From Gammaproteobacteria bacterium (GTDB taxonomy: Bacteria > Pseudomonadota > Gammaproteobacteria > Ga0077536), in NCBI GenBank assembly GCA_965223085.1, contig OZ244981.1, positions 182,747-246,746 of the forward strand: 64,000 nucleotides of DNA, read 5' to 3'. The notes beneath the pieces were generated by a model that was given only the letters and a program-made list of their open reading frames with translations, ran no database searches and was not told where the DNA came from. The translations under genes were made by a program, and so were the position numbers. Shown one piece after another: positions 358 through 63,309 of this stretch (within the stretch, counting starts at the first letter, position 1; the number at the start of each line of letters is the position of its first letter).

Positions 358-2564
<2,207 letters not shown>

Positions 2565-3381: not shown

Positions 3382-4377
3382 ATGTCCACGCTAATTGATT
3401 CTTCGCCCAGCGAAATTTCTGCTATACGCAAGCTAATTGCGGCTGATCTAGCTGCGGTCGACCGCATACTCGAATCGCAACTGCAATCAGATGTGTTTCT
3501 AATTAACCAACTGAGCGACTACATCATCGGCGGCGGCGGCAAACGTTTGCGCCCGATCTTGGCGCTGTTATCCGCGCGGGCATCTAATTACGCGGGGTCT
3601 AAACACGTTAATGTCGCCGTTATCATAGAACTCGTGCATACCGCGACGTTGTTACACGACGATGTCGTTGACGCATCCCATTTGCGCCGCGGCCGGGAAA
3701 CCGCAAACTTAGTCTGGGGCAACGAGGCGAGCGTACTGGTAGGCGATTTTCTCTATTCGCGGGCGTTTCAAATGATGGTCGATATTCGCAATCTGCGCGT
3801 ACTGGAAGTTCTCGCCGACGCTACCAACACGATCGCAGAAGGCGAAGTCATGCAACTCGTCAATTGCCACGATCCCGATATCAGCGAAACGCGCTATTTG
3901 CACACTATTCGTTTCAAAACGGCAAAGCTCTTTGAAGCCGCCGCGGAACTTGGCGCAGTGGTTGCGGAGGGTGGCTCGGAAGCCGAAGCCGCAATGGCCG
4001 CTTATGGGCGCCATTTGGGCACCGCGTTTCAGCTAGTCGACGACGCCCTAGACTATACCGCCTCAGATCAATCACTCGGTAAAAACATCGGTGACGATCT
4101 CGCTGAAGGCAAACCGACGCTACCGCTGCTCTACGCCATGTGGCAGGGTGATCAGGATCAAGCGCGTTGTGTCCGGGAAGCGATAAAACGCGGCGGTCGT
4201 GAACGCATCGACGAAATACTTCGCGCGATCGAGTCTACCGGCGCCATTACCTATACTTTTGATATCGCCAACGCGGAATCAGAAAAAGCGCAACAAGCGC
4301 TCAGCGCAATTCCCGCTTCGCCGTACCGTGAAGCACTGCTATCCTTGGCACAATTCGCAGTAAATCGCCACTCGTAA
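3382..4377 (+). CDS. ispB: Octaprenyl-diphosphate synthase (trans-polyprenyl diphosphate synthase)
   Basis: LLHDDVVD and DDALD aspartate-rich motifs. Divergent from rplU as in the Pseudomonas/E. coli arrangement. The start is set at ATG 3382 (MSTLIDSS); the track ORF carries a spurious N-extension. Confidence 0.85.
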   Translation: MSTLIDSSPSEISAIRKLIAADLAAVDRILESQLQSDVFLINQLSDYIIGGGGKRLRPILALLSARASNYAGSKHVNVAVIIELVHTATLLHDDVVDASHLRRGRETANLVWGNEASVLVGDFLYSRAFQMMVDIRNLRVLEVLADATNTIAEGEVMQLVNCHDPDISETRYLHTIRFKTAKLFEAAAELGAVVAEGGSEAEAAMAAYGRHLGTAFQLVDDALDYTASDQSLGKNIGDDLAEGKPTLPLLYAMWQGDQDQARCVREAIKRGGRERIDEILRAIESTGAITYTFDIANAESEKAQQALSAIPASPYREALLSLAQFAVNRHS

Positions 4378-4431
4378 CTCCTCGACATTTTGGGGATTGG
4401 GATCGCCCCTCAATTCAGCGCAATGTCCAGA

Positions 4432-4959
4432 TTAGTTTTCGCCCTGTAGGATGGCGACGCTCGCGTGCGCGGCCCGCCGGGCACGTTCTGCGAGTTCTTG
4501 GTCAGATACGCTGCTGATGGGATGGGCAATAGTAACGAAACTATAAGCCGCCGCGCCGAGTACGCGCGCCATCAGCTCCGCCGCACTCACGAACTGCTCG
4601 GTCATGATGGCGACGGACGGTAGATTTAACCGCTCTGCGATGATCGCGTCGTGCAGACTGCACGACGAACAACTGCCTCAGTCGCCCACCCCGGCGACGA
4701 GCGCGTGCCACTTCTCCGCGCCATCGAGCACCTGGATCTCCATTGGCGCACTGTAATTTTGTTTCATCAGGCGGACGACCTCGGCGACGCCGTAGTCTTC
4801 ACTTAGCGCCATTTCATAAGCGTCGAAAAACGGCTTCGTGCCCTTTTTGCCGTTCGAGACGACGGCAATCCTTGCGCCGTCGAGCCGCGCCAGACGGGGG
4901 GCCAACTTAAAGCCACCGTTGTCACGTTCGTAGGTCGGATCGAGTACTTCGATAACCAT
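4432..4959 (-). CDS. UGSC-family selenoprotein, with Sec encoded by an in-frame UGA at 4678..4680
   Basis: The 93-aa track ORF ends in ...VAGVGD-TGA, and the same frame stays open for 81 more codons (GSCSSCSLHDAIIAERLNLPSVAIMTEQF...ILQGEN) to a TAA at 4432. This gives a D-U-G-S-C motif. A SECIS-like hairpin begins 11 nt after the UGA. Confidence 0.7.
4647..4667 (-). promoter_or_regulatory. Bacterial SECIS element (SelB-binding hairpin) downstream of the recoded UGA
   Basis: mRNA CGUCGUGCAG-U-CUGCACGACG is a perfect inverted repeat whose apical GCAGUCUGCAC closely resembles the E. coli fdhF SECIS apex GCAGGUCUGCAC. The apex lies about 22 nt 3' of the UGA. Confidence 0.6.
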
Positions 4960-4977
4960 TCTCCTGGGTTCGACGAA

Positions 4978-6045
4978 TTATGGACCGCAATCGAGACACG
5001 CGCCAACAGCCATCGAAACCGCGTGGCTCTTCGCTCCGAACCATGGCGGTATGACCGCGCCAAAGCCGCCCGCCGGACCGCCTGCCGCAATCACGAGGAC
5101 GTCATCAGGCACCGTAAAAGCGCGATACACCGCGTCACCCTTCTCGCCAACAACCGCGCCCTTGCCGCACGCGGACCAGTCGCTTCGCTTTATATGCGCG
5201 TGCTCGAAAACATACTCACGTACATCCGCCTTAGACCAGTTCGCCGCATCGAAATGCGCGCGCAATTGTGGCGGCACGATCAGCGCATAGTTGCCGGGCC
5301 AGATCGAATAATGCCGCATATTCGTGCGGATCTCCGCAACATAGGTATCGAGAATCTCCTCCGGCAGCGTGGTCCATTCGTTCATGAATTGGCGCGGCGC
5401 GCCGGCCGCCATCACGGTCACGGAGGAAGCATGCCGCGGCACATTTCGTTCTTCCGCCAATGGTAACCACGGCGTGTTTTCTTCGTCCTCTGCCAGGCAA
5501 TAACTGATCTTGCCTGGGTGTCCCAAGGTCGCGCGATCGACTTCGCCCGGGCGCACGTCGAGCAAATTGTATAAGGCGAGGCGTATTGCGCGGCCGATGC
5601 AGGTACTCGCGCGCTCGGTCGAAGCCAGCGCGTTGAAGGTTCCATCCATATCGAGTTCTTTGCGAATGGGCCCATTGACGATGACGAGAATCGCACAGCC
5701 AGCCGTGCTCGCCGTCGCACCGTGCAGCAAAAAAGGCGCTTGCAACATAGCCATAAACGCGGTCACCACCAGCGGAAAGTGCGGCGCTAAACATCCCGCC
5801 ATGACCGCGTTGATGGCGAGCTTCTCGGCGCTGATGGCCCGCTCGCGTACCGGTTCAATACCGATCAATTGATCTGGTGTCATCAACGCCCCCTCGAGAC
5901 AGGCGTTGACGGCGTCCGCGGTAGGGGGCACAACGGGCAAGCCGTCGGTCCACTTGCGGCGGTGAAAAAATTCTTGCGCAGCGGCGAAGTCTTTTATCTT
6001 ATGGCGTGCCGAGGCCAACCTCGGCTTCACCGTAGCGGTAGCCAT
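4978..6045 (-). CDS. Conserved hypothetical protein (355 aa) immediately upstream of, and likely co-transcribed with, the selenoprotein gene
   Basis: Long ORF with good codon usage, an 18-nt gap to the selenoprotein start, and Gly/Ala-rich motifs (AAGGPAGGFGAV, GACLDCGP). I could not place it in a family. Confidence 0.5.
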   Translation of the reverse strand: MATATVKPRLASARHKIKDFAAAQEFFHRRKWTDGLPVVPPTADAVNACLEGALMTPDQLIGIEPVRERAISAEKLAINAVMAGCLAPHFPLVVTAFMAMLQAPFLLHGATASTAGCAILVIVNGPIRKELDMDGTFNALASTERASTCIGRAIRLALYNLLDVRPGEVDRATLGHPGKISYCLAEDEENTPWLPLAEERNVPRHASSVTVMAAGAPRQFMNEWTTLPEEILDTYVAEIRTNMRHYSIWPGNYALIVPPQLRAHFDAANWSKADVREYVFEHAHIKRSDWSACGKGAVVGEKGDAVYRAFTVPDDVLVIAAGGPAGGFGAVIPPWFGAKSHAVSMAVGACLDCGP

Positions 6046-6417
6046 GTTGTGTGGTCTTCCATAAGCGCTCGCCCTAAATCCTACCGAGCACGTCCCCCTG
6101 AATGCAACCGCATCATAGATCTCAAATTAAGCAAATTAAGGACAGGCACAAAACTTGATGAACCCCACAAGGAAATGAAGTAATGTGTTTCACACCGGCC
6201 CGCATATTGCCCGAACGTCACGGATGACGGCGAAGAGGAGGCCGATCTCAGGACCAGCCTAAAACCGAAACGCGGCCGCAGTTTCGCTCTGAGCATGATC
6301 ACGAAGCTTAGGCGACGCTGACCGAAACCAGGCCGCAGCGGTGAACAAATGCACTAAGCGCGTCGTGCAATAGCTGGGGCTTGTTAGCCAAATCAAACTT
6401 GTCAAGGAGGACGAGCG

Positions 6418-6900
6418 ATGACACAACCCAGACACAGCTTAGTGTCCGTATCAGAGACCCCGTACTATCACGTGATTTCCCGTTGTGTGCGCCGCGCGTT
6501 CCTGTGTGGTGACGACCGTTATTCGGGTCGCAACTATGACCACCGCCGCGATTGGGTACTCGAACGTCTCAAGATTTTGAGTGAAGTCTTTGCCATAGAC
6601 GTTTGCAGCTACGCCATCATGAGCAATCATTTTCACCTAGTTGTGCATCTTGATATCGGGAAGACAGCGACCTGGACTGTCGATGAGGTGATTGACCGTT
6701 GGTGTCGGTTATTTAAAGGCCCAGAGCTTATCCAACGCTATCGCGCCGCGGATACCTTGAGCGAAAACCAATATGCTGACGTTAGCCAAATTGCCGAGGG
6801 GTGGCGTAATCGCCTCGGCAGCTTAAGTTGGTATATGCGGTGTCTGAACGAACATATTGCACGCAAAGCGAATGCTGAAGACGAATGTACCGGCCATTTC
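6418..6900 (+). pseudogene. N-terminal fragment of a long-form Y1/HUH (IS200-like, Transposase_17-type) transposase-like gene, interrupted by an IS
   Basis: AGGAGG RBS; the HUH motif SNHFHLVVH; the native frame ends ...ECTGHF at the IS junction. The track ORF reads on into the IS. Confidence 0.7.
6893..6900. repeat. 8-bp target-site duplication (GCCATTTC), left copy
   Basis: Identical octamer directly flanks both IS ends. Confidence 0.7.
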
Positions 6901-8224
6901 GGTAGTGTCAGAAATTCTGTGTTTGAGCCGTTTAAAGAAATCAATCGTTTAAATTAAACCGCTCTCCGAACTGGATTGCAAACTGGGTTTTGGCATGAGA
7001 CCAGGCGATGGGTGGGTTCTTCCATTTCGCCGTGATATTTCTCAATGCCAGCCAGATCAATTTCGTTGCCGCTTCATCATTCGGGAAGTGGCCTTTATTG
7101 CGGATGCTTTTTCGCACGCCGCTGTGTAGCGATTCAATCGCATTTGTCGTGTAGATAATCTTTCGCACGGGTTTAGCGAAAGCAAAGAACGGGATGATGT
7201 GCTCCCAATGCCGTCGCCAGCTTTGTCCGACCGTCGGAAACTTTTCACCCCAATCACTTTGTTCGAATTCGCTTAGCGCCTGCTCGGCCGCTTCGACAGA
7301 ATCAGCTTGGTAAATCGGCTTGAGCGCCGACGCTAGCGCCTTACGATCTTTCCATGAGGCCAACGCGAGTGAATTGCGGATGAGATGGACGATGCAGGTC
7401 TGCACAACCGTATCGGGAAACACCGATGTGATAGCGTCGGGGAATCCTTTGAGGCCATCGACAACTGCGATGAGGATGTCGTTGAGGCCGCGGGATTTGA
7501 GTTCGTTCATCACACGGAGCCAAAATTTAGCGCCTTCAGTTTGTTCGATCCATAAGCCCAATACTTCCTTGTGGCCCGAGCAACGCATCCCGATGGCCAG
7601 ATACACCGCCTTGTTGCGGACCAGGCCTTCGTCACGGATTTTCACGCGCAACGCATCGAAGAATACCACCGCGTAGGTGGATTCCAACGGACGCGATTGC
7701 CACGCCCTCACTTCGTCGATAACTGAATCAGTCACCACCGAAACGAGATCCGGTGATATCGATACGCCATACAGTTCACCAACGTGCGATTGAATATCCC
7801 GGGTACTCATCCCTCGCGCATACAGCGCGATGATCTTTTCATCGAAGCCTGGGAATCGGCGTTGATATTTTTTGATTAACGCCGGGTCGAAGTGACCGTG
7901 ACGGTCTCGGGGAATGTCCAGAACAATCTCGCCATCGTCGCTCAACACCGTCTTCTGGCTTGAGCCATTACGGTGGTTGCCAGCTTGCTGCTCGGCTTCG
8001 CCGTCGAGGTGCGCATCCATCTCTGCGTTGAGCATTCGCTCAGCCAGGGCCTTCTTAAGGTCGCCAAGCAACCCCGCCGAACTCAACGCCGTCGCCGGGT
8101 CTTGTCCTTTGAGAAGCTCGTCTAAGATATCGGCGTCGAACGCCGGGGATTTTGCTTTTGCCATACTGCTCTCCTTCCCATAGCAGGATAGTATGGCTCA
8201 AAACACAAAATTACTGACAGTCTC
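6901..8224 (-). mobile_element. IS256-family insertion sequence (1324 bp)
   Basis: Single 407-aa IS256/mutator-type transposase. Imperfect ~26-bp terminal inverted repeats (GGTAGTGTCAGAAATTCTGTGTTTGAGCC versus the reverse complement of GGCTCAAAACACAAAATTACTGACAGTCTC). 8-bp TSD. Confidence 0.8.
6941..8164 (-). CDS. IS256-family transposase
   Basis: 407 aa with conserved IS256 regions (MSTRDI, YLAIGM, FPDTVVQTCIVHLIRNSL, TTNAIESLH). Confidence 0.88.
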   Translation of the reverse strand: MAKAKSPAFDADILDELLKGQDPATALSSAGLLGDLKKALAERMLNAEMDAHLDGEAEQQAGNHRNGSSQKTVLSDDGEIVLDIPRDRHGHFDPALIKKYQRRFPGFDEKIIALYARGMSTRDIQSHVGELYGVSISPDLVSVVTDSVIDEVRAWQSRPLESTYAVVFFDALRVKIRDEGLVRNKAVYLAIGMRCSGHKEVLGLWIEQTEGAKFWLRVMNELKSRGLNDILIAVVDGLKGFPDAITSVFPDTVVQTCIVHLIRNSLALASWKDRKALASALKPIYQADSVEAAEQALSEFEQSDWGEKFPTVGQSWRRHWEHIIPFFAFAKPVRKIIYTTNAIESLHSGVRKSIRNKGHFPNDEAATKLIWLALRNITAKWKNPPIAWSHAKTQFAIQFGERFNLND

Positions 8225-8232: not shown

Positions 8233-8745
8233 TGGGAAAGTCGCTTTAAATGTCAGGCCTTGTTAGACCAAACCGCCCTGGTAACCGCCATGGCCTATGT
8301 GGACTTGAACCCAGTCCGGGCAAATCTGGCAACAGGTATTTCAGACAGCGACAAAACATCCGCCCAACAACGGCTTAAGGTCGCAGTGCGAAAAGACATC
8401 GACGATCGCATTCGGCTAATGGACTTCCAAGGCAGTGCAAAAGAAAAAGCCTCGCCCAAGATTCAGTTCAGTTTGCGAGATTACCTTGAACTGATCGATT
8501 GGACAAGCCGCTGTATTCGAGAAGAAAAACACAGCACCATTGATCGCAATTCACCCCGCTTATTTACCCAACTCGATATTAATCAACACGAGTGGTTACC
8601 GAACGTGACTGCGATGCAATCCCGCTATGAAAAAGTAATGGGTTCGCCCAGACGGATGCGACATCATGCCCAATCACGTGGCGGCAAATTTTGTCGCGGT
8701 CACCGCTATGCCGAACGGCTTTATCGACGCCTAAATACACGGTAA
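8225..8745 (+). pseudogene. C-terminal fragment of the interrupted Y1/HUH transposase-like gene
   Basis: The frame resumes HFWESRFKCQALLDQTALVTAMAYVDLNPVRANLA, which is the conserved catalytic-Tyr region. Joining 6418..6900 to 8233..8745 restores ~331 aa. Confidence 0.7.
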
Positions 8746-9104: not shown

Positions 9105-10262
9105 TCAGCAAACCCCAGTGCGGTGCAGCTGTCGTCGCCTCGCTTCGTCGTACCCTAACCTTTCTAGTATCTCATCAGTGTGTTCACCTATTTCAGCGCA
9201 GGCACCCGACGGCCGCCCCGGTTCGTCACGAAATTTTATCGGCGTGCCCAGATGCTCAACGCCGTCAAGCCCTTCTTGAATCATGCCACGCTCACGCAGA
9301 TAAGGCGCGTGCCAAGCTTCATAGATATCCAACACCGGTGCGTAACAAACGCCTTTGTCCGCGAGCCAGGCGTCCCATTCATCACGAGTTTTCTCGACGA
9401 ACGTCGCAGCCAGAAAGTCGCGTACCGGTGCTTGTGCCGCTCCCCAGGGCTCACGACACAAGGCGATCAGATCTGGTCGTTCCAAAGCATTCAACAGGTT
9501 TTCAACAAAGTTCATTTCTGCACCCGACAAAACGAGATAACGGTCATCAGCGGTCTTATAAATGTTGTAGAAAGCGGCGCCACCATGCAGGCGCTCCCGC
9601 GCGAGCTCCGGCGGACGGTGCTCGGCGATGACGCTGCTCAGAATATGCGGCGTCCACGCCATCAGGGTATCCAGCATCGCCGCATCGATGAAATCCCCTT
9701 TGCCAGTCGTCTCACGCCGCAAAAGTGCCATCAGGATCGCAGCCAAGGCGCTGGAGCCCAACGCGATATCGGCCATCGGCAAGCTCGGTAAGATCGGCGG
9801 CGCACCGTCGCGCTGGCCCAAACTCAGCACCCCGGTCAACGCCTGCGCGCCGATATCATGCGATGGGCGCTCAGCGAGTGCACCGGTTTGGCCAAACGCG
9901 GATAACGAACAATAGACGATCCGAGGATTGCGCGAGCACACGGCGTCATAGCCAATTCCGAGTCGATCGACGACACCGGGGCGAAACGATTCAATGATGA
10001 CATCGGATTCATCGGCGAGGCGCAGAAAGATCGCTAGACCTTCTGCCGTTTTTAGGTTTAAGCGCAAGCTTTGTTTACCGCGTTGCGTATTGCGAAAGTA
10101 CGCGGTGAAGCCCTTCACTTCGTGGCCGAGCTTGCGCGTCGTCTCGCCATCAAAACTCTCGACTTTGATTACCTCCGCACCATGATCCGCGAGCGTCAAT
10201 CCGGCATGGGGACCTGGTAGAAAACGTGACAGATCGAGGGCGCGAATACCTTCAAGTTTCAT
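9105..10262 (-). CDS. CoA-transferase family III (CaiB/BaiF) protein
   Basis: MKLEGIRALDLSRFLPGPHAGLTLADHGAEVIKVE is the typical family III N-terminus. Confidence 0.8.
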   Translation of the reverse strand: MKLEGIRALDLSRFLPGPHAGLTLADHGAEVIKVESFDGETTRKLGHEVKGFTAYFRNTQRGKQSLRLNLKTAEGLAIFLRLADESDVIIESFRPGVVDRLGIGYDAVCSRNPRIVYCSLSAFGQTGALAERPSHDIGAQALTGVLSLGQRDGAPPILPSLPMADIALGSSALAAILMALLRRETTGKGDFIDAAMLDTLMAWTPHILSSVIAEHRPPELARERLHGGAAFYNIYKTADDRYLVLSGAEMNFVENLLNALERPDLIALCREPWGAAQAPVRDFLAATFVEKTRDEWDAWLADKGVCYAPVLDIYEAWHAPYLRERGMIQEGLDGVEHLGTPIKFRDEPGRPSGACAEIGEHTDEILERLGYDEARRRQLHRTGVC

Positions 10263-20358: not shown

Positions 20359-21663
20359 ATGAGCACAGCTGACCAGAACGCTTATCACAAGATCCGGGCA
20401 CGCGCGGCAAAGCCGCCGAGCGGCTGTCCAATAAACCATGATTTTACCCCCTTTGATCACGGCTATTTACGCAACCCCTACCCACCGCTCGAGCGGCTCA
20501 GCGAGGAACAGCCGACATTCTATGCCGAACAATTAGGCTACTTAGTGATCACGCGCATGGATCACATCTTGGAAGTGTTCAAACAACCGGAGATATTTTC
20601 ATCGGAAAATGTACAAGATCCGGTTTTCCCCGTATGCAAACGTGCATCTGCCGTATTGTCCGCCGCCGACTACAACCCCGTGGCGGTAATGTCCAACCGA
20701 CAACAACCTGATCACACCCGTATCCGCAAATACACGCGTGAAGGTTTTTCCCCGCGCCGCCTGAAAATTCTCGAACCGTATATCCGTGATAAGAGCAATG
20801 ATTTGATCGATCGCATGTTGGCCGCAGGCAGCCCCGCAGAATTCGTCAGCGCCTTCGCACACCCGCTGCCAGGCCATATCATTTTCCGTTTCATCGGCTT
20901 CCCCCTGGGCGACGATGAGCAACTCACTTATTGGACCTCCAACCGCTTGGCTTTTACCTGGGGCAAGCCCTCGGACGACGAACAAGTCGAAATAGCCGAA
21001 AACATGTTGCGTTACTGGCGCTATTGCCGCGACTTTGTTGCGCAACGTAAGGCGCAGCCTGCCGACGATCTAACCTCGGAGTTACTCGCTGCTCACGCTG
21101 AGAACCCCGATGACTTAAGTTATCGCGAAGTCGAATCGGTGATCTATGGCCTGTCGTTCGCGGGGCACGAGATCGTGAGTAATTTTCTCGCCAACACGTT
21201 ATTAAACGTGCTGCCAAAGCCGGATCAGTGGGGCACGCTGCGCGATGATCCAACGCTGATCCCCAACGCGCTCGAAGAAGTTCTGCGCTGCGACTCGCCC
21301 CAGATCAGTTGGCGCCGGGTGGCGACGGCCGATACACGTGTGGGTGACATCGACATCCCGGCAGGTACGCAGATTTTTCTTAGCCTCGGCGCGGCGAATC
21401 ATGAAAGAGATATTTTCCCCAAGCCCTCGAGCTTCGATATTTACCGCGATAATGCTGGTAAGCATATTTCTTTTGGCCACGGAATTCATTTTTGCCTCGG
21501 CGCACGGCTCGCGCGCCTGGAAGGACGGATTGCTATAGAGACTCTGACGAAACGCTTGCCGAGCCTACGCTTGGTCCCGGATCAAAACTTGCACTGGTCG
21601 CCCAACATCACGTTTCGCGGCCCGGCAAAACTCGCAGTGGAATGGGATACTGCGACAGCTTAA
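20359..21663 (+). CDS. Cytochrome P450
   Basis: Heme loop FGHGIHFCLGARLA, EEVLR (ExxR). Sits 67 bp downstream of hpaI on the same strand. Confidence 0.88.
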   Translation: MSTADQNAYHKIRARAAKPPSGCPINHDFTPFDHGYLRNPYPPLERLSEEQPTFYAEQLGYLVITRMDHILEVFKQPEIFSSENVQDPVFPVCKRASAVLSAADYNPVAVMSNRQQPDHTRIRKYTREGFSPRRLKILEPYIRDKSNDLIDRMLAAGSPAEFVSAFAHPLPGHIIFRFIGFPLGDDEQLTYWTSNRLAFTWGKPSDDEQVEIAENMLRYWRYCRDFVAQRKAQPADDLTSELLAAHAENPDDLSYREVESVIYGLSFAGHEIVSNFLANTLLNVLPKPDQWGTLRDDPTLIPNALEEVLRCDSPQISWRRVATADTRVGDIDIPAGTQIFLSLGAANHERDIFPKPSSFDIYRDNAGKHISFGHGIHFCLGARLARLEGRIAIETLTKRLPSLRLVPDQNLHWSPNITFRGPAKLAVEWDTATA

Positions 21664-28940: not shown

Positions 28941-30146
28941 TTACCACCGAACAGGCATCGCATAGATGCCATAGATCTGACTATCGTCTTTGAATCGTAT
29001 CTCGATCACCGGCACGGCGAGTTCAAGCGTCGGGATGCGCTGGAACAAAGCAGGAAAAACGGTGCGCAGTTCGAAACGGGCGAGCATTTGACCGAGACAT
29101 TGGTGAATACCATAACCAAATGCGCAGTGATTGCCCGCATTGCGCCGGACGTCGAAGCGATCGGGATCCTGAAACATCGTCGGATCGCGATTAGCAGCCG
29201 GTGTAAGTCCGAACACGCCCTCTCCTTTTTTGATCACGATCCCGTCGATCTCCACATCTTCGAGTGCCACCCGTCGCGGTGCAAATTGAACGGGGCTTAA
29301 ATAGCGCAGCAATTCTTCGACAGCAGCGTCGATCAGGGACCAGTCGTGGCGCAATGCGGTGAGTTGAGCAGGCGTTTGCAATAACAGCAAGGTGCCGAGC
29401 GCAATCATATTCGCGGTCGTATCGTGACCCGCGCGCAGCAACATAGCGCCGATGTGCGCGAATTCCTCCACCGAGAGCTTGCCGGGTTTGACGTATTCAT
29501 CGACGATCCGAGAGATCATATCGTTACCGGGTCGCCGTATTTTTTTTGCGATGAGTTGGGCCGCGTATTCGACCAGGGCTTGCGCACTAGTGCGGGCTTG
29601 CTCGGGCGTTTGCGAAAGGCCGTGTCGTCCGGCGGCACAAGCCATAATGAACTCGTGATCCTCGTAAGGAGAACCGAATAGATCGCACATCACCAATGCG
29701 GGAAACTTTTGCGCGAGAGCCGTGATGAAATCGACGGGAGGTGAACATGACAACATGTCGTCGATAAGCTCGTTTGTGATTTGCTCAATGCGCGGCTTTA
29801 ACGCCAACATGCGTTTAACCGTGAATTCACCGCTTAACATGCGTCGGTAATGATCATGTTGCGGATTATCCATGCCGACGAAGGCTCTCTCCTGCTTATC
29901 TATAGCAACGCGAGCCTCCGTCACCGCTGGAAAATCAGCGCGACCGAACTCGCCACTAAAGCGAGGATCGAGCACAACTGCCCGCAGGTGGCCATAGCGG
30001 GTCAACAAGTACGCACGCCGACCGTCCCACAACGTAACCGGGAAAATCGGTCGTGATTCGCGCGCTCGTGCGTACAACAACGGTGGATCGAAAGCGCGCT
30101 CCCGCTTAAACGGGAACTGCGGGGCATCGGGTAGAGATTTACTCAT
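28941..30146 (-). CDS. Cytochrome P450
   Basis: FGYGIHQCLGQMLARFE heme loop; EELLRY. Confidence 0.88.
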   Translation of the reverse strand: MSKSLPDAPQFPFKRERAFDPPLLYARARESRPIFPVTLWDGRRAYLLTRYGHLRAVVLDPRFSGEFGRADFPAVTEARVAIDKQERAFVGMDNPQHDHYRRMLSGEFTVKRMLALKPRIEQITNELIDDMLSCSPPVDFITALAQKFPALVMCDLFGSPYEDHEFIMACAAGRHGLSQTPEQARTSAQALVEYAAQLIAKKIRRPGNDMISRIVDEYVKPGKLSVEEFAHIGAMLLRAGHDTTANMIALGTLLLLQTPAQLTALRHDWSLIDAAVEELLRYLSPVQFAPRRVALEDVEIDGIVIKKGEGVFGLTPAANRDPTMFQDPDRFDVRRNAGNHCAFGYGIHQCLGQMLARFELRTVFPALFQRIPTLELAVPVIEIRFKDDSQIYGIYAMPVRW

Positions 30147-31934: not shown

Positions 31935-32888
31935 ATGCGCCTCGCCACGATACGCCTGCCCGACAGCGGTGAACTTCGCTACGCGGTAGTGAGCGGTGAT
32001 GAAGTGATCGATCTCGACGCTGCTGACGCGCGGTTGAATCTTTCCGGACTACCGCGCCGATCTGTAGTTCCCCGCAACCACCATGACTGGTTCACGACCG
32101 CCGGCCGAAGTCGCGCGCAAATGCTCCTCGAACGTGCCAGCGAAGCGCGTGCTGCTGCGGGCGTGTGGTACCGCCGCGATGAGGTCACATTTGGACCTCC
32201 CATTCGACAGCCACGAAAATTCATTGCGGCGGGGCGCAATTATGCCGATCACGTACGCGAAAGTCAGCGCATTTGGGCCGCGCGCGGCAAAGAGGTGGCA
32301 CGCGCCGCGCGCCCAACCGCGTTCGCGAAATTTGCTTCGAGCATTGTTGGTCCCCACGAACCTATTCGCCTTCCCGTCGGCGTAAACAGCGTGGATTATG
32401 AAGTCGAGCTCGCCGTCATCATCGGCGCTCCCGCCCATGACGTAGACGTCTCGGAAGCACTAGAGTTTGTAGCGGGCTACACAATCTGCAACGATATCGG
32501 CGCCCGCGACATCCAGCGCTTCGAGATGGAACATCAAATTGGCATCGTCATGGCTAAGAATTTTCCGACTTTTGCACCGCTCGGACCGTGGCTCGTGACA
32601 AGCGATGAAATTCCCGATCCACAAATCCTGCGCATCGGCCTGGAAGTAAACGGCGAACCACGCCAAGACGCAAACACTGCAGATATGATTTTTTCAGTAG
32701 CTGAACTCATCGCGTATTGGTCGCGTCTGGGGCTCGAACCCGGCGATATAATTACCACCGGGACCCCGGCCGGGGTTGCGCTGGCGCGTTCGGAACCGGA
32801 GGTTTTTTATCTCAAACCCGGCGATACTGTGCGAGCTTTCATCGAAGGTATCGGCGCGTTAGTTAATCCCGTTTCGCGTTCCTCATAA
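31935..32888 (+). CDS. Fumarylacetoacetate-hydrolase family protein
   Basis: FAH-domain motifs (GRNYADHVRE, ELAVIIG, ITTGTPAGV). Confidence 0.8.
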   Translation: MRLATIRLPDSGELRYAVVSGDEVIDLDAADARLNLSGLPRRSVVPRNHHDWFTTAGRSRAQMLLERASEARAAAGVWYRRDEVTFGPPIRQPRKFIAAGRNYADHVRESQRIWAARGKEVARAARPTAFAKFASSIVGPHEPIRLPVGVNSVDYEVELAVIIGAPAHDVDVSEALEFVAGYTICNDIGARDIQRFEMEHQIGIVMAKNFPTFAPLGPWLVTSDEIPDPQILRIGLEVNGEPRQDANTADMIFSVAELIAYWSRLGLEPGDIITTGTPAGVALARSEPEVFYLKPGDTVRAFIEGIGALVNPVSRSS

Positions 32889-32902: not shown

Positions 32903-34021
32903 ATGAATAGCCGCGCCACCAACCAAGCACCTTTGTTCGGTGAGAACCGCCTGAAGCTCGGAGTGTTTTCCGCCAACGTCAGCGGAGGCGGTACGATGAC
33001 TACGGCAGCAGACGCCCTCACCTTGGATTGGTCACAGACGCTTAAGATTCATCAAGAAGCAGACCGGTTGGGCTTTGAAGTTCTGATCCCGGTTGCGCGT
33101 TGGCGCAGCTTTGGTGGGCCAAGCGACTTCAACGCGAACGCCTTCGAAACCTATTCGTGGGCGGCGGGGGTCGGTCAGGCGACCCAGCGTGTGGCGTGTG
33201 TCGCCACCTCGCACGTCACCACCGTGCATCCCTTGTTCGCGGCCAAGCAAGCTACGACTATCGACCACATCACCGGCGGGCGCTTTGCGCTTAACATCGT
33301 TTGCGGATGGTACAAAGAAGAGCTCGAGATGTTCGGCGGCAACATCATGGAGCACGATCTGCGTTACGATTACGCAGCGGAATGGGTCGAGCTGGTCAAA
33401 CGATTTTGGACGAGTGAAGAGGAATTCGATTTTGATGGCCGCTTCTTTTCAATACGTAGGGGAGTAGCGCGGCCGCGACCAATTCAGCAGCCGCGGCCAC
33501 CGCTGATCAATGCCGGCGGTTCACCGCGCGGCCGGCGGTTCGCAACCGAACATTGTGACGTAGCGTTCGTGCCGGTCGATCAGGAGGATCTCGGCGCCGC
33601 CGCAACCCATGTGAAAGCGTATCGCGAGATGGCACGCAAGGAATTCAACCGCCACCTCGACGTCTGGGCGATCGCCTACGTCATACAGCGGGATACCCAG
33701 CGTGAGGCGGAGGATTACCTCAACTATTATGCCGTCGAACACGGCGACGACGTCGCGGTCGAAAACTGTCTGGGCACGCTAGGCGTGCAATCGCAAATGT
33801 ACACGGCGGAACAATACGAGCGCCTCAAATTTCATTTGAAAGCAGGGTATTTCGGCTACCCGCTCGTCGGAACGAAGGAGCGCATCGTCGATGAAATAAC
33901 CCGCCTGTCGGCTATCGGCATTGACGGCCTCGCCCTCGTGTGGTGTGACTACTACGATGGCTTAAAGCGCTGGGGCCAAGATATTATGCCGCTACTACAG
34001 GAAGTCGATTTGCGCGCCTAG
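32903..34021 (+). CDS. LLM-class flavin-dependent monooxygenase
   Basis: 372 aa, SsuD/bacterial-luciferase-like. Confidence 0.75.
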   Translation: MNSRATNQAPLFGENRLKLGVFSANVSGGGTMTTAADALTLDWSQTLKIHQEADRLGFEVLIPVARWRSFGGPSDFNANAFETYSWAAGVGQATQRVACVATSHVTTVHPLFAAKQATTIDHITGGRFALNIVCGWYKEELEMFGGNIMEHDLRYDYAAEWVELVKRFWTSEEEFDFDGRFFSIRRGVARPRPIQQPRPPLINAGGSPRGRRFATEHCDVAFVPVDQEDLGAAATHVKAYREMARKEFNRHLDVWAIAYVIQRDTQREAEDYLNYYAVEHGDDVAVENCLGTLGVQSQMYTAEQYERLKFHLKAGYFGYPLVGTKERIVDEITRLSAIGIDGLALVWCDYYDGLKRWGQDIMPLLQEVDLRA

Positions 34022-54829: not shown

Positions 54830-56131
54830 ATGATGTCTCACTCTGTTGACGAAATCGACATCCATTCGCCGCAGCTATATGCGGAGCAGGGTTATCCCTG
54901 GGCCGCTTGGGACTTATTGCGTCGCGACGCGCCGGTCTACTGGTATGAACGCAACGACATCGAACCATTTTGGGCGGTGACGCGTTATGCCGATGTGATG
55001 GCGATTTCAGATCACCCGCGAGTTTTCATCAACGGTGGTCCACGATTGCGGCTGGCGCTAAAGGGGGAACCGGAGTTATTGCGTGGCGGGCTTGATGAAT
55101 TTGGCGAATCACGAGGCTGGGATCCCCAGGAGCCACCCGATATTACGTTCATGGATGATCCCCGTCATCGCAAATTCCGCAAACTGTCGAGTTGGGCATT
55201 CACCCAAGGTTGCATGCGGGAGATGGCGACGCATCTAGACGAACTCGCCGAGCGCTTTACCGATGAATTCGTCGCGCGATTGGAGGCGGCTACTTCGACG
55301 ACAGCGGTATGTGATGTAGTACAGGAATTGGCAGCTAAATTGCCACTCGCTGCGATTGGAGAGATCCTTGAATTACCGCCCGATGATTGGAAAAAGTTAT
55401 TAATCTGGTCGAACGCAATCATCGGCGAAGTCGAACCGCTGCACGTCCACGCGGGCGAGACTGTAGCGCAGGCAGCAGCACGTAACATGTACGAGTTTCG
55501 CCTCTACTTAGAAGCGTTGATTCATCAACATCGGAGGCCAGGTGGCGGGCCCTCCGGCTTTGTCAACCGTCTTCTCTGCGCTACCGTCGACGGCCAGACA
55601 TTGAACGATCAGCAAGCGATCGGTTATCTGTTTTTGTTAATCGGCGCGGGTAATGACACGACCCGAAATGCAACCACCGGTGGCATCGTCGCTTTGTTAG
55701 AACATCCACAGCAACGCGATCTCCTGTGCGCCGAACCTGCACTGCTCGGACAAGCCAGCGCCGAAATATTTCGTTGGACTTCCCCCGTTATTAGTTTTTT
55801 GCGCACCGCCACCGAAGATTATGTATTGAACGGCACGACGATACGTAAAAACGATACCGTGTGTATGTTCTATCCCTCCGCGAATCGCGATGAACGTGTC
55901 TTCGATGCGCCCTACCGCTTCGACATACGCCGTGACCCAAACCCCTACATCACTTTCGGCTACGGCGCACACTTTTGTCTCGGCACTAATCTCGCGCGCG
56001 CCGAGCTCGGCGCCGCGCTAAAGGCGTTGTTACCGGTACTGCCGCACCTCGAAGTCGCCGGAAGTGGGCGCCGTATCGCCAATACGCATGTCTCGGGATA
56101 CGCCTACATGCCGGTGCGGCTCGCGGCATAA
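54830..56131 (+). CDS. Cytochrome P450
   Basis: FGYGAHFCLGTNLARAE heme loop. Confidence 0.88.
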   Translation: MMSHSVDEIDIHSPQLYAEQGYPWAAWDLLRRDAPVYWYERNDIEPFWAVTRYADVMAISDHPRVFINGGPRLRLALKGEPELLRGGLDEFGESRGWDPQEPPDITFMDDPRHRKFRKLSSWAFTQGCMREMATHLDELAERFTDEFVARLEAATSTTAVCDVVQELAAKLPLAAIGEILELPPDDWKKLLIWSNAIIGEVEPLHVHAGETVAQAAARNMYEFRLYLEALIHQHRRPGGGPSGFVNRLLCATVDGQTLNDQQAIGYLFLLIGAGNDTTRNATTGGIVALLEHPQQRDLLCAEPALLGQASAEIFRWTSPVISFLRTATEDYVLNGTTIRKNDTVCMFYPSANRDERVFDAPYRFDIRRDPNPYITFGYGAHFCLGTNLARAELGAALKALLPVLPHLEVAGSGRRIANTHVSGYAYMPVRLAA

Positions 56132-59029: not shown

Positions 59030-61105
59030 GTGTCTAAGCTCAACATCGGTATCGACGTTGGTGGTACCCATACTGATCTCATTGCCGTACGCGATGCTCG
59101 GGTGGTGCGCTCGAAAGCGCTCACGACTCACGACGACTACAGCCGAGGTATTTTTGACGCGCTTGAAAATGCTGCCAGCGAATTCAATTTCTCCGTCGAT
59201 GACATGTTGAGCGAACACACACAGATATTTGTCAATGGCAATACGATCGTGACTAACGCGGTAACTGAGCTCAAGGGTGCCAACGTAGGCGTACTCGTCA
59301 CTGCGGGATTTACCGACATTCCTCGCTTTGGCCGCGGCAATCGTTCAAATGTCTTCGACGATCACCTGCAGGTGAATCTGCCCCAGATCGTTCCTAAGGA
59401 AAATATTATTGCTATCGACGAGCGCGTCGATCGGGATGGCAACGTCGTCGTGCCTTTAGACCGCGCCCAAGTGCAGCGCGCGGTCCACACGCTATTAGCT
59501 GCCGAAGTCGACGCCATTGCCGTGTGCTTCTTATGGTGCACACGCAACGCCGCACACGAATGCGAGGCAGAAGAGATTATTCACGAGCTCGCGCCGCAAC
59601 TGTTTGTGACACGGTCGGTGGCGGCGGCGTCCGTATTCCGCGAGTACGAGCGCTGGATGACCGCGATTTTGAATTGCTACGTGCAATCACCGGTAAACGC
59701 CTTCGTGACGCGCGTCTCTGAAGGCCTACGCCAGCGTGGATACCGACACAACGTTGAGTTTTTCAACGGCCTCGGCGGGGTGTTGGGCGCCGCCGAGGTA
59801 CGCGACCTGCCGATCCTGCTCTACAGCTCTGGGCCAGCAGGGGGGGCGATCGGCGCCGCCGCGCTGGCCCGGCGTTATCGCATCGAGAGCTTATTATGCG
59901 GTGATATGGGCGGCACAAGCTTCGACACCACACTTGTGCATCGGCAGAAACCGAGCGTCGCGCAGCGTTGCCGCATCGGCCCTTTCGATACCGCGGTGAG
60001 TCTGTTGGATATCATTTCTATCGGCGCAGGTGGTGGCAGTCTCGTCGGTCTCGACACCCGGGGCGTACCTCAAATTGGTCCCCAAAGCGCGGGCTCCATG
60101 CCGGGTCCGGTGTGCTACGGCAATGGGGGTGTGGTGCCGACGATGACAGATTGCATGGTAAGCATGAGGTTCCTAAGAGCGGATAACTACCTCGGTGGCC
60201 GCCATCCACTGGATGTCGAGGCAGCCCGCAAGGCATTGGTCACAAGCGTCGGTGAGCCACTGGGATGGGATGCGGAACAAACTTCTAGCGGCGCCTACAA
60301 GCTTGCCGTAGCAAACATGGCCAACGCGCTTCGCAGCGTGTCGATTCGGCGCGGTCACGATCCGCGCAAATGCACCTTTGTCGCCTACGGTGGGGCCTTA
60401 CCGATGTTCGCCGCCGCGATCTGCCGCCAGCTAAACATCTCCGATTTGATCGTGCCAAATCACAGCGCGGCGTTTTCCGCCTATGGCCTCCTTGAAGCGG
60501 ATTATATACGGCGCAAGTCGATCACCGTTGGGTGGACGGTAGAGAATCGTGAGGCACTCGCTACTATCGTTGCTGCGCGGGACACATTGGTGCGTGAGGT
60601 GACAGCGGAAATCACTCGTGCCGGTTTTCCAAAGCACGCCGTGACGCTCCGACACGGCGCCGATTTTCGCTATACGGGACAATTAAATGAAATGTACATC
60701 GATCTGGCGTCGGACGACGTTTTGAGCGAGGGGCCCGGTGGCTTACGGGAAAAATTTGATGCCGCATATGAACAGGAGTTTGGTGCCGAGACCGCCTGGC
60801 GTAACGCGCCGTTGATGCTAATTAATTATGTCATCACCGGCATCGCTGTGCGTGACAAACCCCACTTTGATGCCGTTGTAGCGGAGCAACATCCCGCTGA
60901 TGAAGCTTTAAATGCCACCCGCTCGATGTTTCTACCCGACGTAGATGAATGGGTAGACACGCCGATTTATACTGCTGAGAAAATGAGCCCCGGTGCGTGC
61001 TTTGAGGGTCCCGGCGTCATCGAGGTTTCTGATACGACAATCTATGTACCGCATCGTGCGAGCGTGGAACGTGACGAATTTATGAACTTCAGATTGCAAC
61101 TATGA
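59030..61105 (+). CDS. Hydantoinase A / oxoprolinase / acetone-carboxylase beta-like subunit
   Basis: MSKLNIGIDVGGTHTDL is the ASKHA-fold N-terminus of the HyuA family. Confidence 0.85.
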   Translation: MSKLNIGIDVGGTHTDLIAVRDARVVRSKALTTHDDYSRGIFDALENAASEFNFSVDDMLSEHTQIFVNGNTIVTNAVTELKGANVGVLVTAGFTDIPRFGRGNRSNVFDDHLQVNLPQIVPKENIIAIDERVDRDGNVVVPLDRAQVQRAVHTLLAAEVDAIAVCFLWCTRNAAHECEAEEIIHELAPQLFVTRSVAAASVFREYERWMTAILNCYVQSPVNAFVTRVSEGLRQRGYRHNVEFFNGLGGVLGAAEVRDLPILLYSSGPAGGAIGAAALARRYRIESLLCGDMGGTSFDTTLVHRQKPSVAQRCRIGPFDTAVSLLDIISIGAGGGSLVGLDTRGVPQIGPQSAGSMPGPVCYGNGGVVPTMTDCMVSMRFLRADNYLGGRHPLDVEAARKALVTSVGEPLGWDAEQTSSGAYKLAVANMANALRSVSIRRGHDPRKCTFVAYGGALPMFAAAICRQLNISDLIVPNHSAAFSAYGLLEADYIRRKSITVGWTVENREALATIVAARDTLVREVTAEITRAGFPKHAVTLRHGADFRYTGQLNEMYIDLASDDVLSEGPGGLREKFDAAYEQEFGAETAWRNAPLMLINYVITGIAVRDKPHFDAVVAEQHPADEALNATRSMFLPDVDEWVDTPIYTAEKMSPGACFEGPGVIEVSDTTIYVPHRASVERDEFMNFRLQL

Positions 61106-63309
61106 ACCAACAACAAACAGTAAATGCAAGCATTGCGCCGCCGGTGGCCGGTGTTGACCCGATTACGGCGGAAGTGGTGCGTTGCGCGTTCGACAATATC
61201 GCCGACGAAATGGCAGTGGTTTTATTGCGCACATCCGGCTCGCCGGTACTCACAGAAGCTAAAGATTTTTCGGCTGTAGTATTCGATGCAAGCGGGCGCC
61301 AAATCGGGAGCGCCGGCTATGTGCTCGGCCATCTCGCAAGCTCACGCATTGCCGTTCAGGAAATAATTGAGAAACGTGTGCCTGAGGATCTTGAACCGGG
61401 CGACATTTTTGCGTGCAACGATCCGTATACGGTTGGCGCTCTGCATCAAGGTGACGTCGGGATCGTAATGCCGATTCACCATCAAGAAGCGCTCATTGGT
61501 TGGGCGTTTGCCAATGCGCATTTGATCGACGTCGGAGGCACTTCGATCAGCGGCATCGCACCGCAAGCGCATGATTGCTTCGAAGAAGCGATCCGTTTTC
61601 CCGGCAGTCGTATCGGACAGCGCGGCGTTCTGAATGTGGAATGGTTAGGTTTTATCGAGACCAATGTTCGAGTACCGGTATCTTTTATTAACGACGTTCG
61701 TAGCCTTGTCGCAGCGTGTTTGGCCGGGGCACGCGGAATGTGCGAACTCGTCGATGATTACGGCTTAGCGACGCTTCAGCGCTATGTAGATCACAACATT
61801 TTACTAACAGAAACAGCGTTCCGGGCCCGCATCGCAGAACTACCCACAGGGAGTGCGCGCACTTACGATTGGGTCGAGTACGACGGTCGTGGGAAATCTG
61901 ACTTGCATGCGGTTTTTTGCGACATGACGGTCACCAACGGGGAACTGCGATTTTCGTTTTCTGGCGCCCAACAGATCGATGCGTTCATCAATGCAACACC
62001 CAGCGCTGTCGCCGGCATCGGCGTCATTACACCGCTATTATGTCAACTTGCCCATGACATCCCTTTCAATGAAGGGATTTGGAATTGCATCACAATCGAT
62101 ACGGGTGCGGCAGGTACGGTCGTCAATCCACGGGTACCCGCACCCGTTACCAACGCGCACATGGAAACCGGCATGCGCATCGGGCGCATGGTCAGCGAGG
62201 CGCTATCCCTTAGCTGTAGCGCGAGTGATTCTCGCCTGCTGCGCAACCGCGCCGCCGGACAGATCGCCAGCAGTGGCGCGGGCGCCGCGTGGTTCGGCGT
62301 TAAAAATGATGGGCAACTGGCGATCATTTTTCCGCTCGATAATCTCGTTGCCATTGGCGGTGCTGCGCAAAGCTCTGGCGACGGTCAAGATCTCTATGGC
62401 TTTCAAACGACCTTGGCTGTGTCGTTCCCGGATGTGGAAGTTCATGAACTCGTCGATCCGTTTTATGTTTTGTGGCGCCGTTATTGCGTTAATTCTGGCG
62501 GCGCGGGCCGCCACCGCGGCGGCCTGGCCTTGGATCAAGCCTACGTGCTGTGGCAAGCCGATAATTTCAGCGGCTCAGGTTTCATCGCCTCGGTTGAACT
62601 TCCCGCACGTGGCTTCGCCGGCGCTTACCCCGGCGGCGCCTCACGCAGCGCCGTGCTGCGTAATTCCGACGTTGTAGCCAAACTTAAAAATGGTCAATCG
62701 GTCTCATCACCAGAAAAACTACGTGGCACACTCGAGGTATTACCGGCAAAAGTAAGCAACGTACCTCTTCGCGAGGGCGACGTGTACTGGGCGACGTCCG
62801 CGGGCAGCGGCGGACTCGGTGATCCTTTTCATCGCGCGCCGGCGCAGGTTGAGCGAGACTTAAACGACGGCAAGATCACACCCGCCGCAGCAGAAACGCT
62901 CTACGGCGCGGTCGTTACCAGGCACGATGGCCGCGCAAGCGTTGCCGCAGCAGCAAGCTGGGCACAACGGGATCGGCTACGCGCGGCACTAGTACCCACT
63001 AAGCGATATGCCTTGCAAGATGTTGCGTTCAAAAATGCTCACGACGGCGTTTTGCTTGCGGATGCGCGCTGGACTTGCGCACACTGTGAAGAAGACTTAG
63101 GCGGCATGGGAAAGAGCTGGAAGACTAGTATCATCCCGCACTACCGGGCACTCGGAGAGTTGTTCGAGCAGGCTGAAACCCAGATCCGAGTCCGCGAAGA
63201 AAACCCCGTGCTGCTCGCTGCACGGTACTGTCCCGCGTGCGCGAGCTGTTTGAGCGTAGATGTGGAACTAGAAAATGTCGAGCGCGTGCCCGCGGATTTT
63301 AACTTTTGA
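61102..63309 (+). CDS. Hydantoinase B / acetone-carboxylase alpha-like subunit with C-terminal Cys4 extension
   Basis: HyuB-family core to about residue 580. An extra ~150 aa follows, containing CAHCEE...CPACASC. 4-bp overlap with hyuA. Confidence 0.8.
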   Translation: MNQQQTVNASIAPPVAGVDPITAEVVRCAFDNIADEMAVVLLRTSGSPVLTEAKDFSAVVFDASGRQIGSAGYVLGHLASSRIAVQEIIEKRVPEDLEPGDIFACNDPYTVGALHQGDVGIVMPIHHQEALIGWAFANAHLIDVGGTSISGIAPQAHDCFEEAIRFPGSRIGQRGVLNVEWLGFIETNVRVPVSFINDVRSLVAACLAGARGMCELVDDYGLATLQRYVDHNILLTETAFRARIAELPTGSARTYDWVEYDGRGKSDLHAVFCDMTVTNGELRFSFSGAQQIDAFINATPSAVAGIGVITPLLCQLAHDIPFNEGIWNCITIDTGAAGTVVNPRVPAPVTNAHMETGMRIGRMVSEALSLSCSASDSRLLRNRAAGQIASSGAGAAWFGVKNDGQLAIIFPLDNLVAIGGAAQSSGDGQDLYGFQTTLAVSFPDVEVHELVDPFYVLWRRYCVNSGGAGRHRGGLALDQAYVLWQADNFSGSGFIASVELPARGFAGAYPGGASRSAVLRNSDVVAKLKNGQSVSSPEKLRGTLEVLPAKVSNVPLREGDVYWATSAGSGGLGDPFHRAPAQVERDLNDGKITPAAAETLYGAVVTRHDGRASVAAAASWAQRDRLRAALVPTKRYALQDVAFKNAHDGVLLADARWTCAHCEEDLGGMGKSWKTSIIPHYRALGELFEQAETQIRVREENPVLLAARYCPACASCLSVDVELENVERVPADFNF

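Follow-up and report, generated by a model that had tools for sequence, protein, structure and literature searches.

Does a TGA triplet on the minus strand end a short gene, or is it read as selenocysteine (Sec)? This question is raised by positions 4,432 to 4,959 of a 64,000-nucleotide stretch of contig OZ244981.1 (assembly GCA_965223085.1, Gammaproteobacteria bacterium), which as a whole is called the window below. An earlier note, made from the letters of this DNA, had proposed that the locus is a complete gene of a UGSC-family selenoprotein, that its mRNA carries a selenocysteine insertion sequence (SECIS) resembling that of Escherichia coli fdhF, and that a gene-finder would report only a truncated protein of 93 residues. 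The observation made in that note was confirmed by our analysis and its interpretation is supported. We consider it very probable that the locus is one gene for a 175-residue UGSC selenoprotein, that its UGA is decoded as Sec by means of a SECIS, and that the product is the redox partner of a 355-residue protein encoded next to it.

A reading frame that continues through UGA

Translation bore out every coordinate of the proposed frame. It opens with ATG at 4959, runs for 93 codons to TGA (4680..4678), and stays open for 81 further sense codons up to TAA at 4434..4432. When the UGA is decoded, the product comprises 175 residues, with Sec at position 94 (U94) within U-G-S-C-S-S-C. The surrounding peptide is GVGD-U-GSCSSCSLHD, which includes the D-U-G-S-C-S-S-C motif noticed earlier, and the Sec-flanking stretch reads AGVGD-U-GSCSSCSLHDAIIAER. 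The GC content at third codon positions (GC3) is 0.73 before TGA and 0.69 after it, so that both sides look coding. Since TGA ends ordinary genes elsewhere in the window (e.g. at 52410, 34480 and 31922), the genetic code is standard. As had been foreseen, the truncated 93-residue product is already recorded as a called gene of the source contig (P0133), and database relatives are mostly recorded as N-terminal stumps of 94-105 residues. A scan of the 64-kb window for other open reading frames (ORFs) split by TGA gave no convincing case; the rest were antisense frames of real genes.

Membership in the UGSC family was established with the profile PF24696 (UGSC; gathering cut-off 25 bits). With U replaced by C, the product matches it with 155.1 bits (E 2.5e-45); the match extends over residues 4-172, corresponding to profile positions 1-171 of 172, and thus across the UGA. 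As this family has been on record since 2007, the window gene adds a member to it and is not new in kind. UGSC was noted in Hyphomonas neptunium, in an Olavius symbiont and in a Pacific gyre metagenome (PMC1976440), so its origin in marine metagenomes, as stated in the earlier note, is correct as long as it is not taken to be exclusive. UGSC belongs to the most abundant selenoprotein families of the Global Ocean Sampling data, with 255 Sec forms and 21 cysteine forms (PMC2398784). A survey from 2016 reported it in 26 organisms (PMC5029168), and in 2026 its function was still given as unknown (PMC13188914), in agreement with what the note had said.

To what extent is the part behind the UGA conserved? 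A scan of one genome per species retrieved 262 relatives, the closest with 66% identity, and the best 80 were retained. These cover at least six phyla and belong to Alpha-, Beta- and Gammaproteobacteria, Actinomycetota/Acidimicrobiia, Myxococcota, Acidobacteriota and SAR324. The aligned codon is TGA in 80/80 loci, located within the invariant G[VI]GD-*-GSCSSC (asterisk, TGA), and homology goes on 3' of it in every locus. In every one of the 80 loci, TGA is preceded by 91-93 codons (by as many as 104 where alternative starts are used) and followed by further codons, mostly 79-94, and a stop. Both halves of the window protein were scored with hidden Markov models built from other family members. 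The post-UGA half, taken without the SECIS-encoded peptide, scored 96.4 bits, with the family averaging 102.1 +/- 6.0; being within one standard deviation of the mean, it displays no relaxed selection downstream of the UGA. The pre-UGA half obtained 131.5 bits (family mean 139.0 +/- 6.9).

Homologues with cysteine aligned to the UGA, which the note had suggested looking for, do occur. They are represented by P0007, P0135, P0137, P0141/143/144 and P0147, the last being an Amycolatopsis pigmentata protein with the database name "UGSC family (seleno)protein". When 1.84 billion representatives were searched exhaustively, 3,609 of them were assigned to the family at E <= 0.001. Cysteine occupies the Sec column in 138 of the 150 best family representatives, and 105 have the CGSC motif. 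Across the wider family [U/C]-G-x-C is kept, and the third cysteine is not conserved.

Some close relatives called at full length (P0001, P0002, P0003, P0006, P0136, P0138 and P0140) possess Arg, Trp, Ser or Gly in place of Sec. All these residues are encoded by single-base neighbours of TGA; in locus L001, for example, the DNA has CGA at the Sec codon (7280-7282) and the hairpin described below is intact. Because only a mutated or mis-sequenced TGA yields a read-through ORF call, such variants probably reflect ascertainment bias and not functional non-cysteine forms. Another relative, P0004 (170 residues), consists of an amidohydrolase C-terminus (...GSDADITILDP) joined to a UGSC N-terminus (ILDPTHE...) and stops at the Sec codon. 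A true fusion, a chimera created in assembly or a wrong gene call could each account for it.

The hairpin behind the UGA

The 21 nucleotides encoding S-S-C-S-L-H-D (4667..4647) contain the palindrome CGUCGUGCAG-U-CUGCACGACG. A spacer of 10 nucleotides (4668..4677) separates it from the UGA, so the first hairpin base is the eleventh nucleotide, precisely where the earlier note had placed it. The palindrome stands as well; the single-nucleotide loop drawn in the note does not. Such a loop is ruled out sterically, and the minimum free energy (MFE) structure has a stem of 9 bp, CGUCGUGCA/UGCACGACG, closed by the three-nucleotide loop G4658-U4657-C4656. The 21-nucleotide hairpin alone folds with -13.3 kcal/mol.

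The published consensus of bacterial SECIS elements specifies a loop of 3-9 nucleotides, a stem of 4-16 bp and an MFE <= -7.5 kcal/mol (PMC13188914, Fig. 2A), together with a G at the first or second loop position, usually as G[G/U], 16-37 nucleotides from the UGA (PMC13188914). The window hairpin lies within all these limits. Its loop GUC has 3 nucleotides, its stem has 9 bp, and its energy is well below the threshold. The loop opens with G-U, which is invariant in 76/76 aligned sequences (columns 35-36), at a distance of 19 nucleotides from the UGA (4677..4659). Both position and shape are consistent with SelB-dependent recoding, as had been proposed, and the hairpin is predicted to act as a bacterial SECIS that binds SelB and brings about Sec insertion. 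A scan of the window at Rfam gathering thresholds returned no match, neither to a curated SECIS nor to any other RNA.

Inside the hairpin, synonymous sites are frozen. Codons +6 and +7 are TGC and AGT (one of six Ser codons), respectively, in 82/82 sequences, and codon +5 is TCG in 78/82. Invariant residues outside the hairpin (Gly+1, Ser+2, Cys+3, Pro+20) are encoded by two to four codons each. Pairwise synonymous identity reaches 0.90, 1.0 and 1.0 at codons +5, +6 and +7, compared with a mean of 0.52 at other conserved columns. Pairing is likewise preserved: across 76 sequences 97.2% of pair cells are formed, as opposed to at most 46% in controls with slid partners, and RNAalifold yields the identical helix. 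Pair 30-42, which is G-C in 37, G-U in 35 and A-U in 4 sequences, is formed in every case; for pair 27-45 the counts are G-C 57, G-U 9, A-U 4 and other 6. The hairpin is thus kept in orthologues, with constraint on synonymous sites.

Cysteine forms served as controls. The seven residues after the motif occur in 116 forms among the 138 cysteine representatives and are SSCSLHD in all 81 TGA forms. Locus L083 (TGC, 42% identical) keeps the peptide as SSC(T)LHD and encodes it with codons TCC TCC and ACC; the loop G-U and the fold are lost (-5.8 kcal/mol). In L082, an Amycolatopsis cysteine form, neither the peptide nor the hairpin is found. The hairpin is still present in L085 (TGT), a close relative of the Sec forms, which is consistent with a recent change from Sec to cysteine. 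These controls, together with the freezing of synonymous sites, indicate that the nucleotide constraint follows the TGA and not the protein. As judged from the alignments, the 21-nucleotide stretch is under joint protein and RNA constraint across phyla.

The proposed 355-residue partner and the genomic setting

Directly ahead of the UGSC gene, on the shared strand, lies a gene for a 355-residue protein whose stop precedes the UGSC start codon by 18 nucleotides. Coordinates of this and other features are listed in Table 1. The partner protein has no match in Pfam or NCBIfam; its family comprises more than 7,000 database matches, every one of them unnamed or "hypothetical". A homologue adjoins UGSC in 78/81 loci with 62-76% identity, so that the partner is better conserved than UGSC itself. 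Association extends to the cysteine forms: in L083 the partner gene lies ahead of UGSC (54% identity), and in Amycolatopsis L082 it lies downstream, in swapped order (32% identity). Moreover, seven proteins of 541-657 residues are fusions of UGSC with the partner (partner domain E 1e-34 to 1e-52). Invariant residues of the partner are C85, C183 and, at its C-terminal end, C350-x-x-C353, along with a glycine-rich AAGGPAGGFG. A scan of 4250..6500 for promoters and terminators gave signals at shuffle level only.

Three loci (L010, L025 and L073) contain no partner homologue in the fetched flanks. In L010 a fused hydantoinase A/B gene (1,220 residues) is located upstream of UGSC in the partner's place. 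In L073 unrelated sequence takes the place of the UGSC N-terminus, and this copy may be rearranged or truncated.

Table 1. Features of the UGSC locus and its surroundings in the window
Feature	Positions	Strand	Basis
Complete UGSC-family selenoprotein gene	4432..4959	minus	translation, PF24696, architecture shared by 80 loci
Putative Sec-encoding UGA	4680..4678	minus	TGA in 80/80 loci, cysteine in family representatives
Predicted SECIS upper stem-loop	4667..4647	minus	MFE fold, conservation, bacterial SECIS consensus
Partner gene, 355 residues	4978..6045	minus	no family; adjoins UGSC in 78/81 loci
IS256/Mutator-family transposase gene	6941..8164	minus	PF00872, E 5.3e-127
CoA-transferase family III gene	9105..10262	minus	PF02515, E 6.6e-97

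The fold was assessed with an AlphaFold2 model of P0135, a cysteine-form homologue that shares 51% identity with the window protein. The model is of high confidence (pLDDT, i.e. predicted local distance difference test, 92.6; predicted template modelling score 0.87) and consists of five parallel beta-alpha units, with the Sec/Cys position immediately behind strand 3, at the N-terminal end of helix 3. The best Foldseek matches in the PDB are flavodoxin/Rossmann-like proteins: FMN-dependent cysteine decarboxylase, lumazine synthase, FMN reductases and flavodoxin-like domains. Template modelling scores are <= 0.5 throughout the top 50 matches, and none of these has a thioredoxin fold. UGSC was placed among proteins with a thioredoxin-like fold by Zhang & Gladyshev 2008 (PMC2398784) and by the 2026 review (PMC13188914); given the five beta-alpha units and the absence of thioredoxin-fold proteins among the top 50 matches, this suggestion was rejected. 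The prediction for UGSC is instead a small alpha/beta protein of flavodoxin/Rossmann-like type, in which U94 and C97, one helical turn apart, would suit a selenenylsulfide couple. Sequence-profile searches of the PDB with UGSC and with the partner gave nothing at E <= 1, and no structural relatives of the partner have been solved beyond YjgF-like and class I fumarase-like domains. A weak match of UGSC to HyaD/HybD (E 0.061) was taken as a fold-level resemblance at most.

Further, we examined genes recurring in the neighbourhood of UGSC. Homologues of family III CoA-transferase lie within 6 kb of UGSC in about 30/85 loci and are directly adjacent in several, including L009 and L026. In the window the CoA-transferase gene is set apart from the partner/UGSC pair by the transposase gene, which is not part of the system and explains the gap. 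Other recurrent neighbours are LysR, enoyl-CoA hydratase, FAH-family hydrolase, hydantoinase B, aldehyde dehydrogenase, short-chain dehydrogenase/reductase (SDR) and arginase-family genes; of these, enoyl-CoA hydratase, FAH, hydantoinase B and LysR were confirmed with Pfam, and the aldehyde dehydrogenase and SDR labels were read from cluster representatives. Tentatively, and with somewhat more doubt than confidence, we propose that a selenium- or cysteine-dependent enzyme is built from UGSC and the 355-residue protein as its two subunits, which some lineages have fused, and that family III CoA-transferases supply the organic acid or acyl-CoA on which it acts.

Several other features of the window were recorded. 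A search for inverted repeats found no usable terminal repeats of the insertion sequence (IS) element. Two ORFs flank the transposase gene, 6418-6957 (plus strand, 179 residues) and 8260-8745 (plus strand, 161 residues); they have neither a family match nor a homologue in related loci. At 358-2549 (minus strand), obg (GTP1/OBG) is followed by proB (glutamate 5-kinase with PUA domain), their longest ORFs overlapping by about 180 nucleotides. Since the AA_kinase match of the proB ORF begins at residue 77, the true proB start is probably further downstream. Cytochrome P450 genes are located at 20359-21663, 28941-30146 and 54830-56131. The window also contains genes for a luciferase-like monooxygenase, an FAH-family hydrolase and a hydantoinase A/B pair (32903-34021, 31935-32888 and 59030-63309, respectively). 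FAH, hydantoinase B and luciferase-like genes recur near UGSC elsewhere; in the window they are 27-55 kb off, and no link is claimed.

Competing explanations and comparison with known systems

According to our explanation, the UGA would be decoded as Sec during translation, the hairpin recruiting SelB-GTP-Sec-tRNA(Sec) with the UGA in the A site, as can be assumed by analogy with the E. coli fdhF mechanism. UGSC would be co-transcribed with the partner gene, to which it appears fused in other lineages, and is most likely a redox-active subunit or partner of the 355-residue protein. The setting would be catabolic, often with family III CoA-transferases.

Not all results favour this explanation, and those that count against it are collected here. 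Folding z-scores of the hairpin region are unremarkable (-1.8 for 66 and -0.9 for 181 nucleotides), and consensus-type hairpins with stems of 9 bp or more follow, at the right distance, 26 of the 1,812 TGA triplets on both strands of the window (1.4%), i.e. such a fold is not rare. Covariation is thin, with 2/9 pairs varying on both sides, because the hairpin sequence is almost invariant. The stem lacks the bulged U of the fdhF element. SelA, SelB and SelD were absent among the 34 window ORFs scanned, which included all ORFs of suitable size, and ARAGORN found no tRNA in the 64-kb window, hence no selC there. Against the NCBIfam model NF041046, named "UGSC family (seleno)protein", the window protein scores 114.2 bits over residues 27-171 (E 4.8e-33). 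This is below the equivalog cut-off of 125, and the NCBI pipeline might therefore not name the gene from that model, although the protein is clearly homologous. A Shine-Dalgarno-like AGGAG (4965..4961) is only 1 nucleotide away from the ATG at 4959, which is an atypical spacing; the partner stop lies 18 nucleotides upstream, and the two genes may be coupled in translation. Finally, neither UGSC nor the partner has a solved or characterised relative, and the redox role of the one and the partner role of the other are deduced from motif, model, gene linkage and fusion. As to the hairpin, the fold by itself is within chance and the comparative evidence is beyond it.

Could the UGA be a true stop and the locus a relic, either acquired from a Sec-using lineage or inherited within one, giving rise to the 93-residue fragment only, in a genome devoid of Sec machinery? 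The lack of sel genes and tRNA-Sec within the 64 kb would agree with this, as would the position of the module beside an IS element, the phyletic spread suggestive of horizontal transfer and the 93-residue product recorded by gene callers. A relic should, however, decay by stops, frameshifts and changes in the hairpin, or be converted to TGC or TGT as in L085, whereas all 81 codons behind the UGA are intact, GC3 downstream is 0.69, both halves score close to the family mean and the SECIS deviates at none of its constrained positions. We thus regard a relic as very unlikely. It is even less likely, in our opinion, that the UGA is read without selenium, either by a near-cognate Cys or Trp tRNA or in a reassigned code, the hairpin being kept for mRNA stability, pausing or coding constraint. 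Single-base codon variants (CGA, TGG, TCA, GGA, TGT) in database relatives and the overlap of the hairpin with an invariant peptide might be cited for such readthrough, but the former are probably accounted for by ascertainment bias, and synonymous-site constraint vanishes in those cysteine forms that keep the peptide, which ties it to the TGA. Besides, TGA terminates ordinary genes of the window under a standard code, and loop G-U, stem length and spacing correspond to the SelB-binding consensus, with an apex close to that of fdhF.

A different objection concerns the product. UGSC might be a free-standing thiol/selenol oxidoreductase of thioredoxin fold, next to which the 355-residue protein is encoded incidentally. 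UxxC does resemble the CxxC of thioredoxins and glutaredoxins, the literature placement cited above (PMC2398784, PMC13188914) points the same way, and three loci do without the partner. Against this stand the confident model with its five parallel beta-alpha units and non-thioredoxin PDB matches, the adjacency in 78/81 loci, which persists at 32% identity in swapped order, and the seven fusions; the objection is therefore unlikely to hold.

If the locus is accepted as a selenoprotein gene, the correct annotation is a 175-residue selenoprotein instead of a stump of about 93 residues, and the presence of the gene implies that the source organism decodes Sec, as we infer from sequence. That Sec genes may accompany the pair is illustrated by L030, a betaproteobacterial metagenome-assembled genome (727-3643, minus strand), in which selA, tRNA-Sec and the beginning of selB are located directly beside it, within about 2.5 kb. 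Its selA encodes 473 residues (PF03841, E 3.6e-152), the tRNA-Sec is located at 2116-2211 and the selB product begins MIVATAGHVDHGK... The selB ORF as read has 452 residues and is devoid of the C-terminal winged-helix part; its shortening may be due to a frameshift or an assembly problem.

The UGSC family is among the most abundant selenoprotein families of aquatic metagenomes, so functional leads matter. Those suitable for experiments are the near-obligate linkage or fusion to one protein, the CoA-transferase neighbours and the non-thioredoxin fold. Should the two-subunit proposal be true, it would provide one of the most abundant aquatic selenoprotein families with a defined partner and with a biochemical context open to testing. 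The locus also provides a clean example of 21 nucleotides under apparent simultaneous protein and RNA selection across phyla. The quantified dual-coded SECIS, the partner with its fusions, the CoA-transferase context and the non-thioredoxin fold go beyond the cited UGSC literature.

Compared with the UGSC family as described (PF24696; NF041046; Zhang & Gladyshev 2007/2008), the window gene exhibits no essential difference, the only deviation being the NF041046 score. It shares the full-length profile match, the U-G-S-C motif, the Sec/Cys column, the length of about 175 residues, a predicted SECIS and the occurrence in aquatic Proteobacteria and Actinomycetota. A 'UGSC/Unknown_1' fusion was reported by Zhang & Gladyshev 2008 (PMC2398784, Fig. 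S1A), and the seven fusions detected here may correspond to it: in both, a conserved domain of unknown function is fused to UGSC.

For comparison with E. coli fdhF, a 51-nucleotide segment was verified as 100% identical under annotated fdhF in 5,412 E. coli genomes. Both elements are situated in the coding region directly after the UGA and both have G-U in the loop. Their apices, UGCA-GGUC-UGCA in fdhF and UGCA-GUC-UGCA in the window, are one loop base apart, so the resemblance of the apex claimed in the earlier note is upheld. The UGA-to-loop distance is 18 nucleotides in fdhF and 19 in the window. They differ in that the window loop is a GUC triloop of 3 nucleotides and that of fdhF a GGUC tetraloop of 4, and the window stem is continuous over 9 bp, so that the likeness does not extend to a bulged U of E. 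coli type. The main contacts of E. coli SelB are the loop G-U and this bulged U. The label "fdhF-like" is a fair description of elements that are not identical.

A functional analogy, and no more than that, can be drawn with selenoproteins of glycine and proline reductases (GrdA with CxxU, GrdB/PrdB with UxxC), which function solely as subunits of multi-protein reductases whose components share one operon. UGSC has in common with them a small alpha/beta architecture and the Sec-x-x-Cys pair. It differs from them in having no sequence relationship (Pfam finds UGSC alone), and its partner matches neither pyruvoyl enzymes nor Grd/Prd families.

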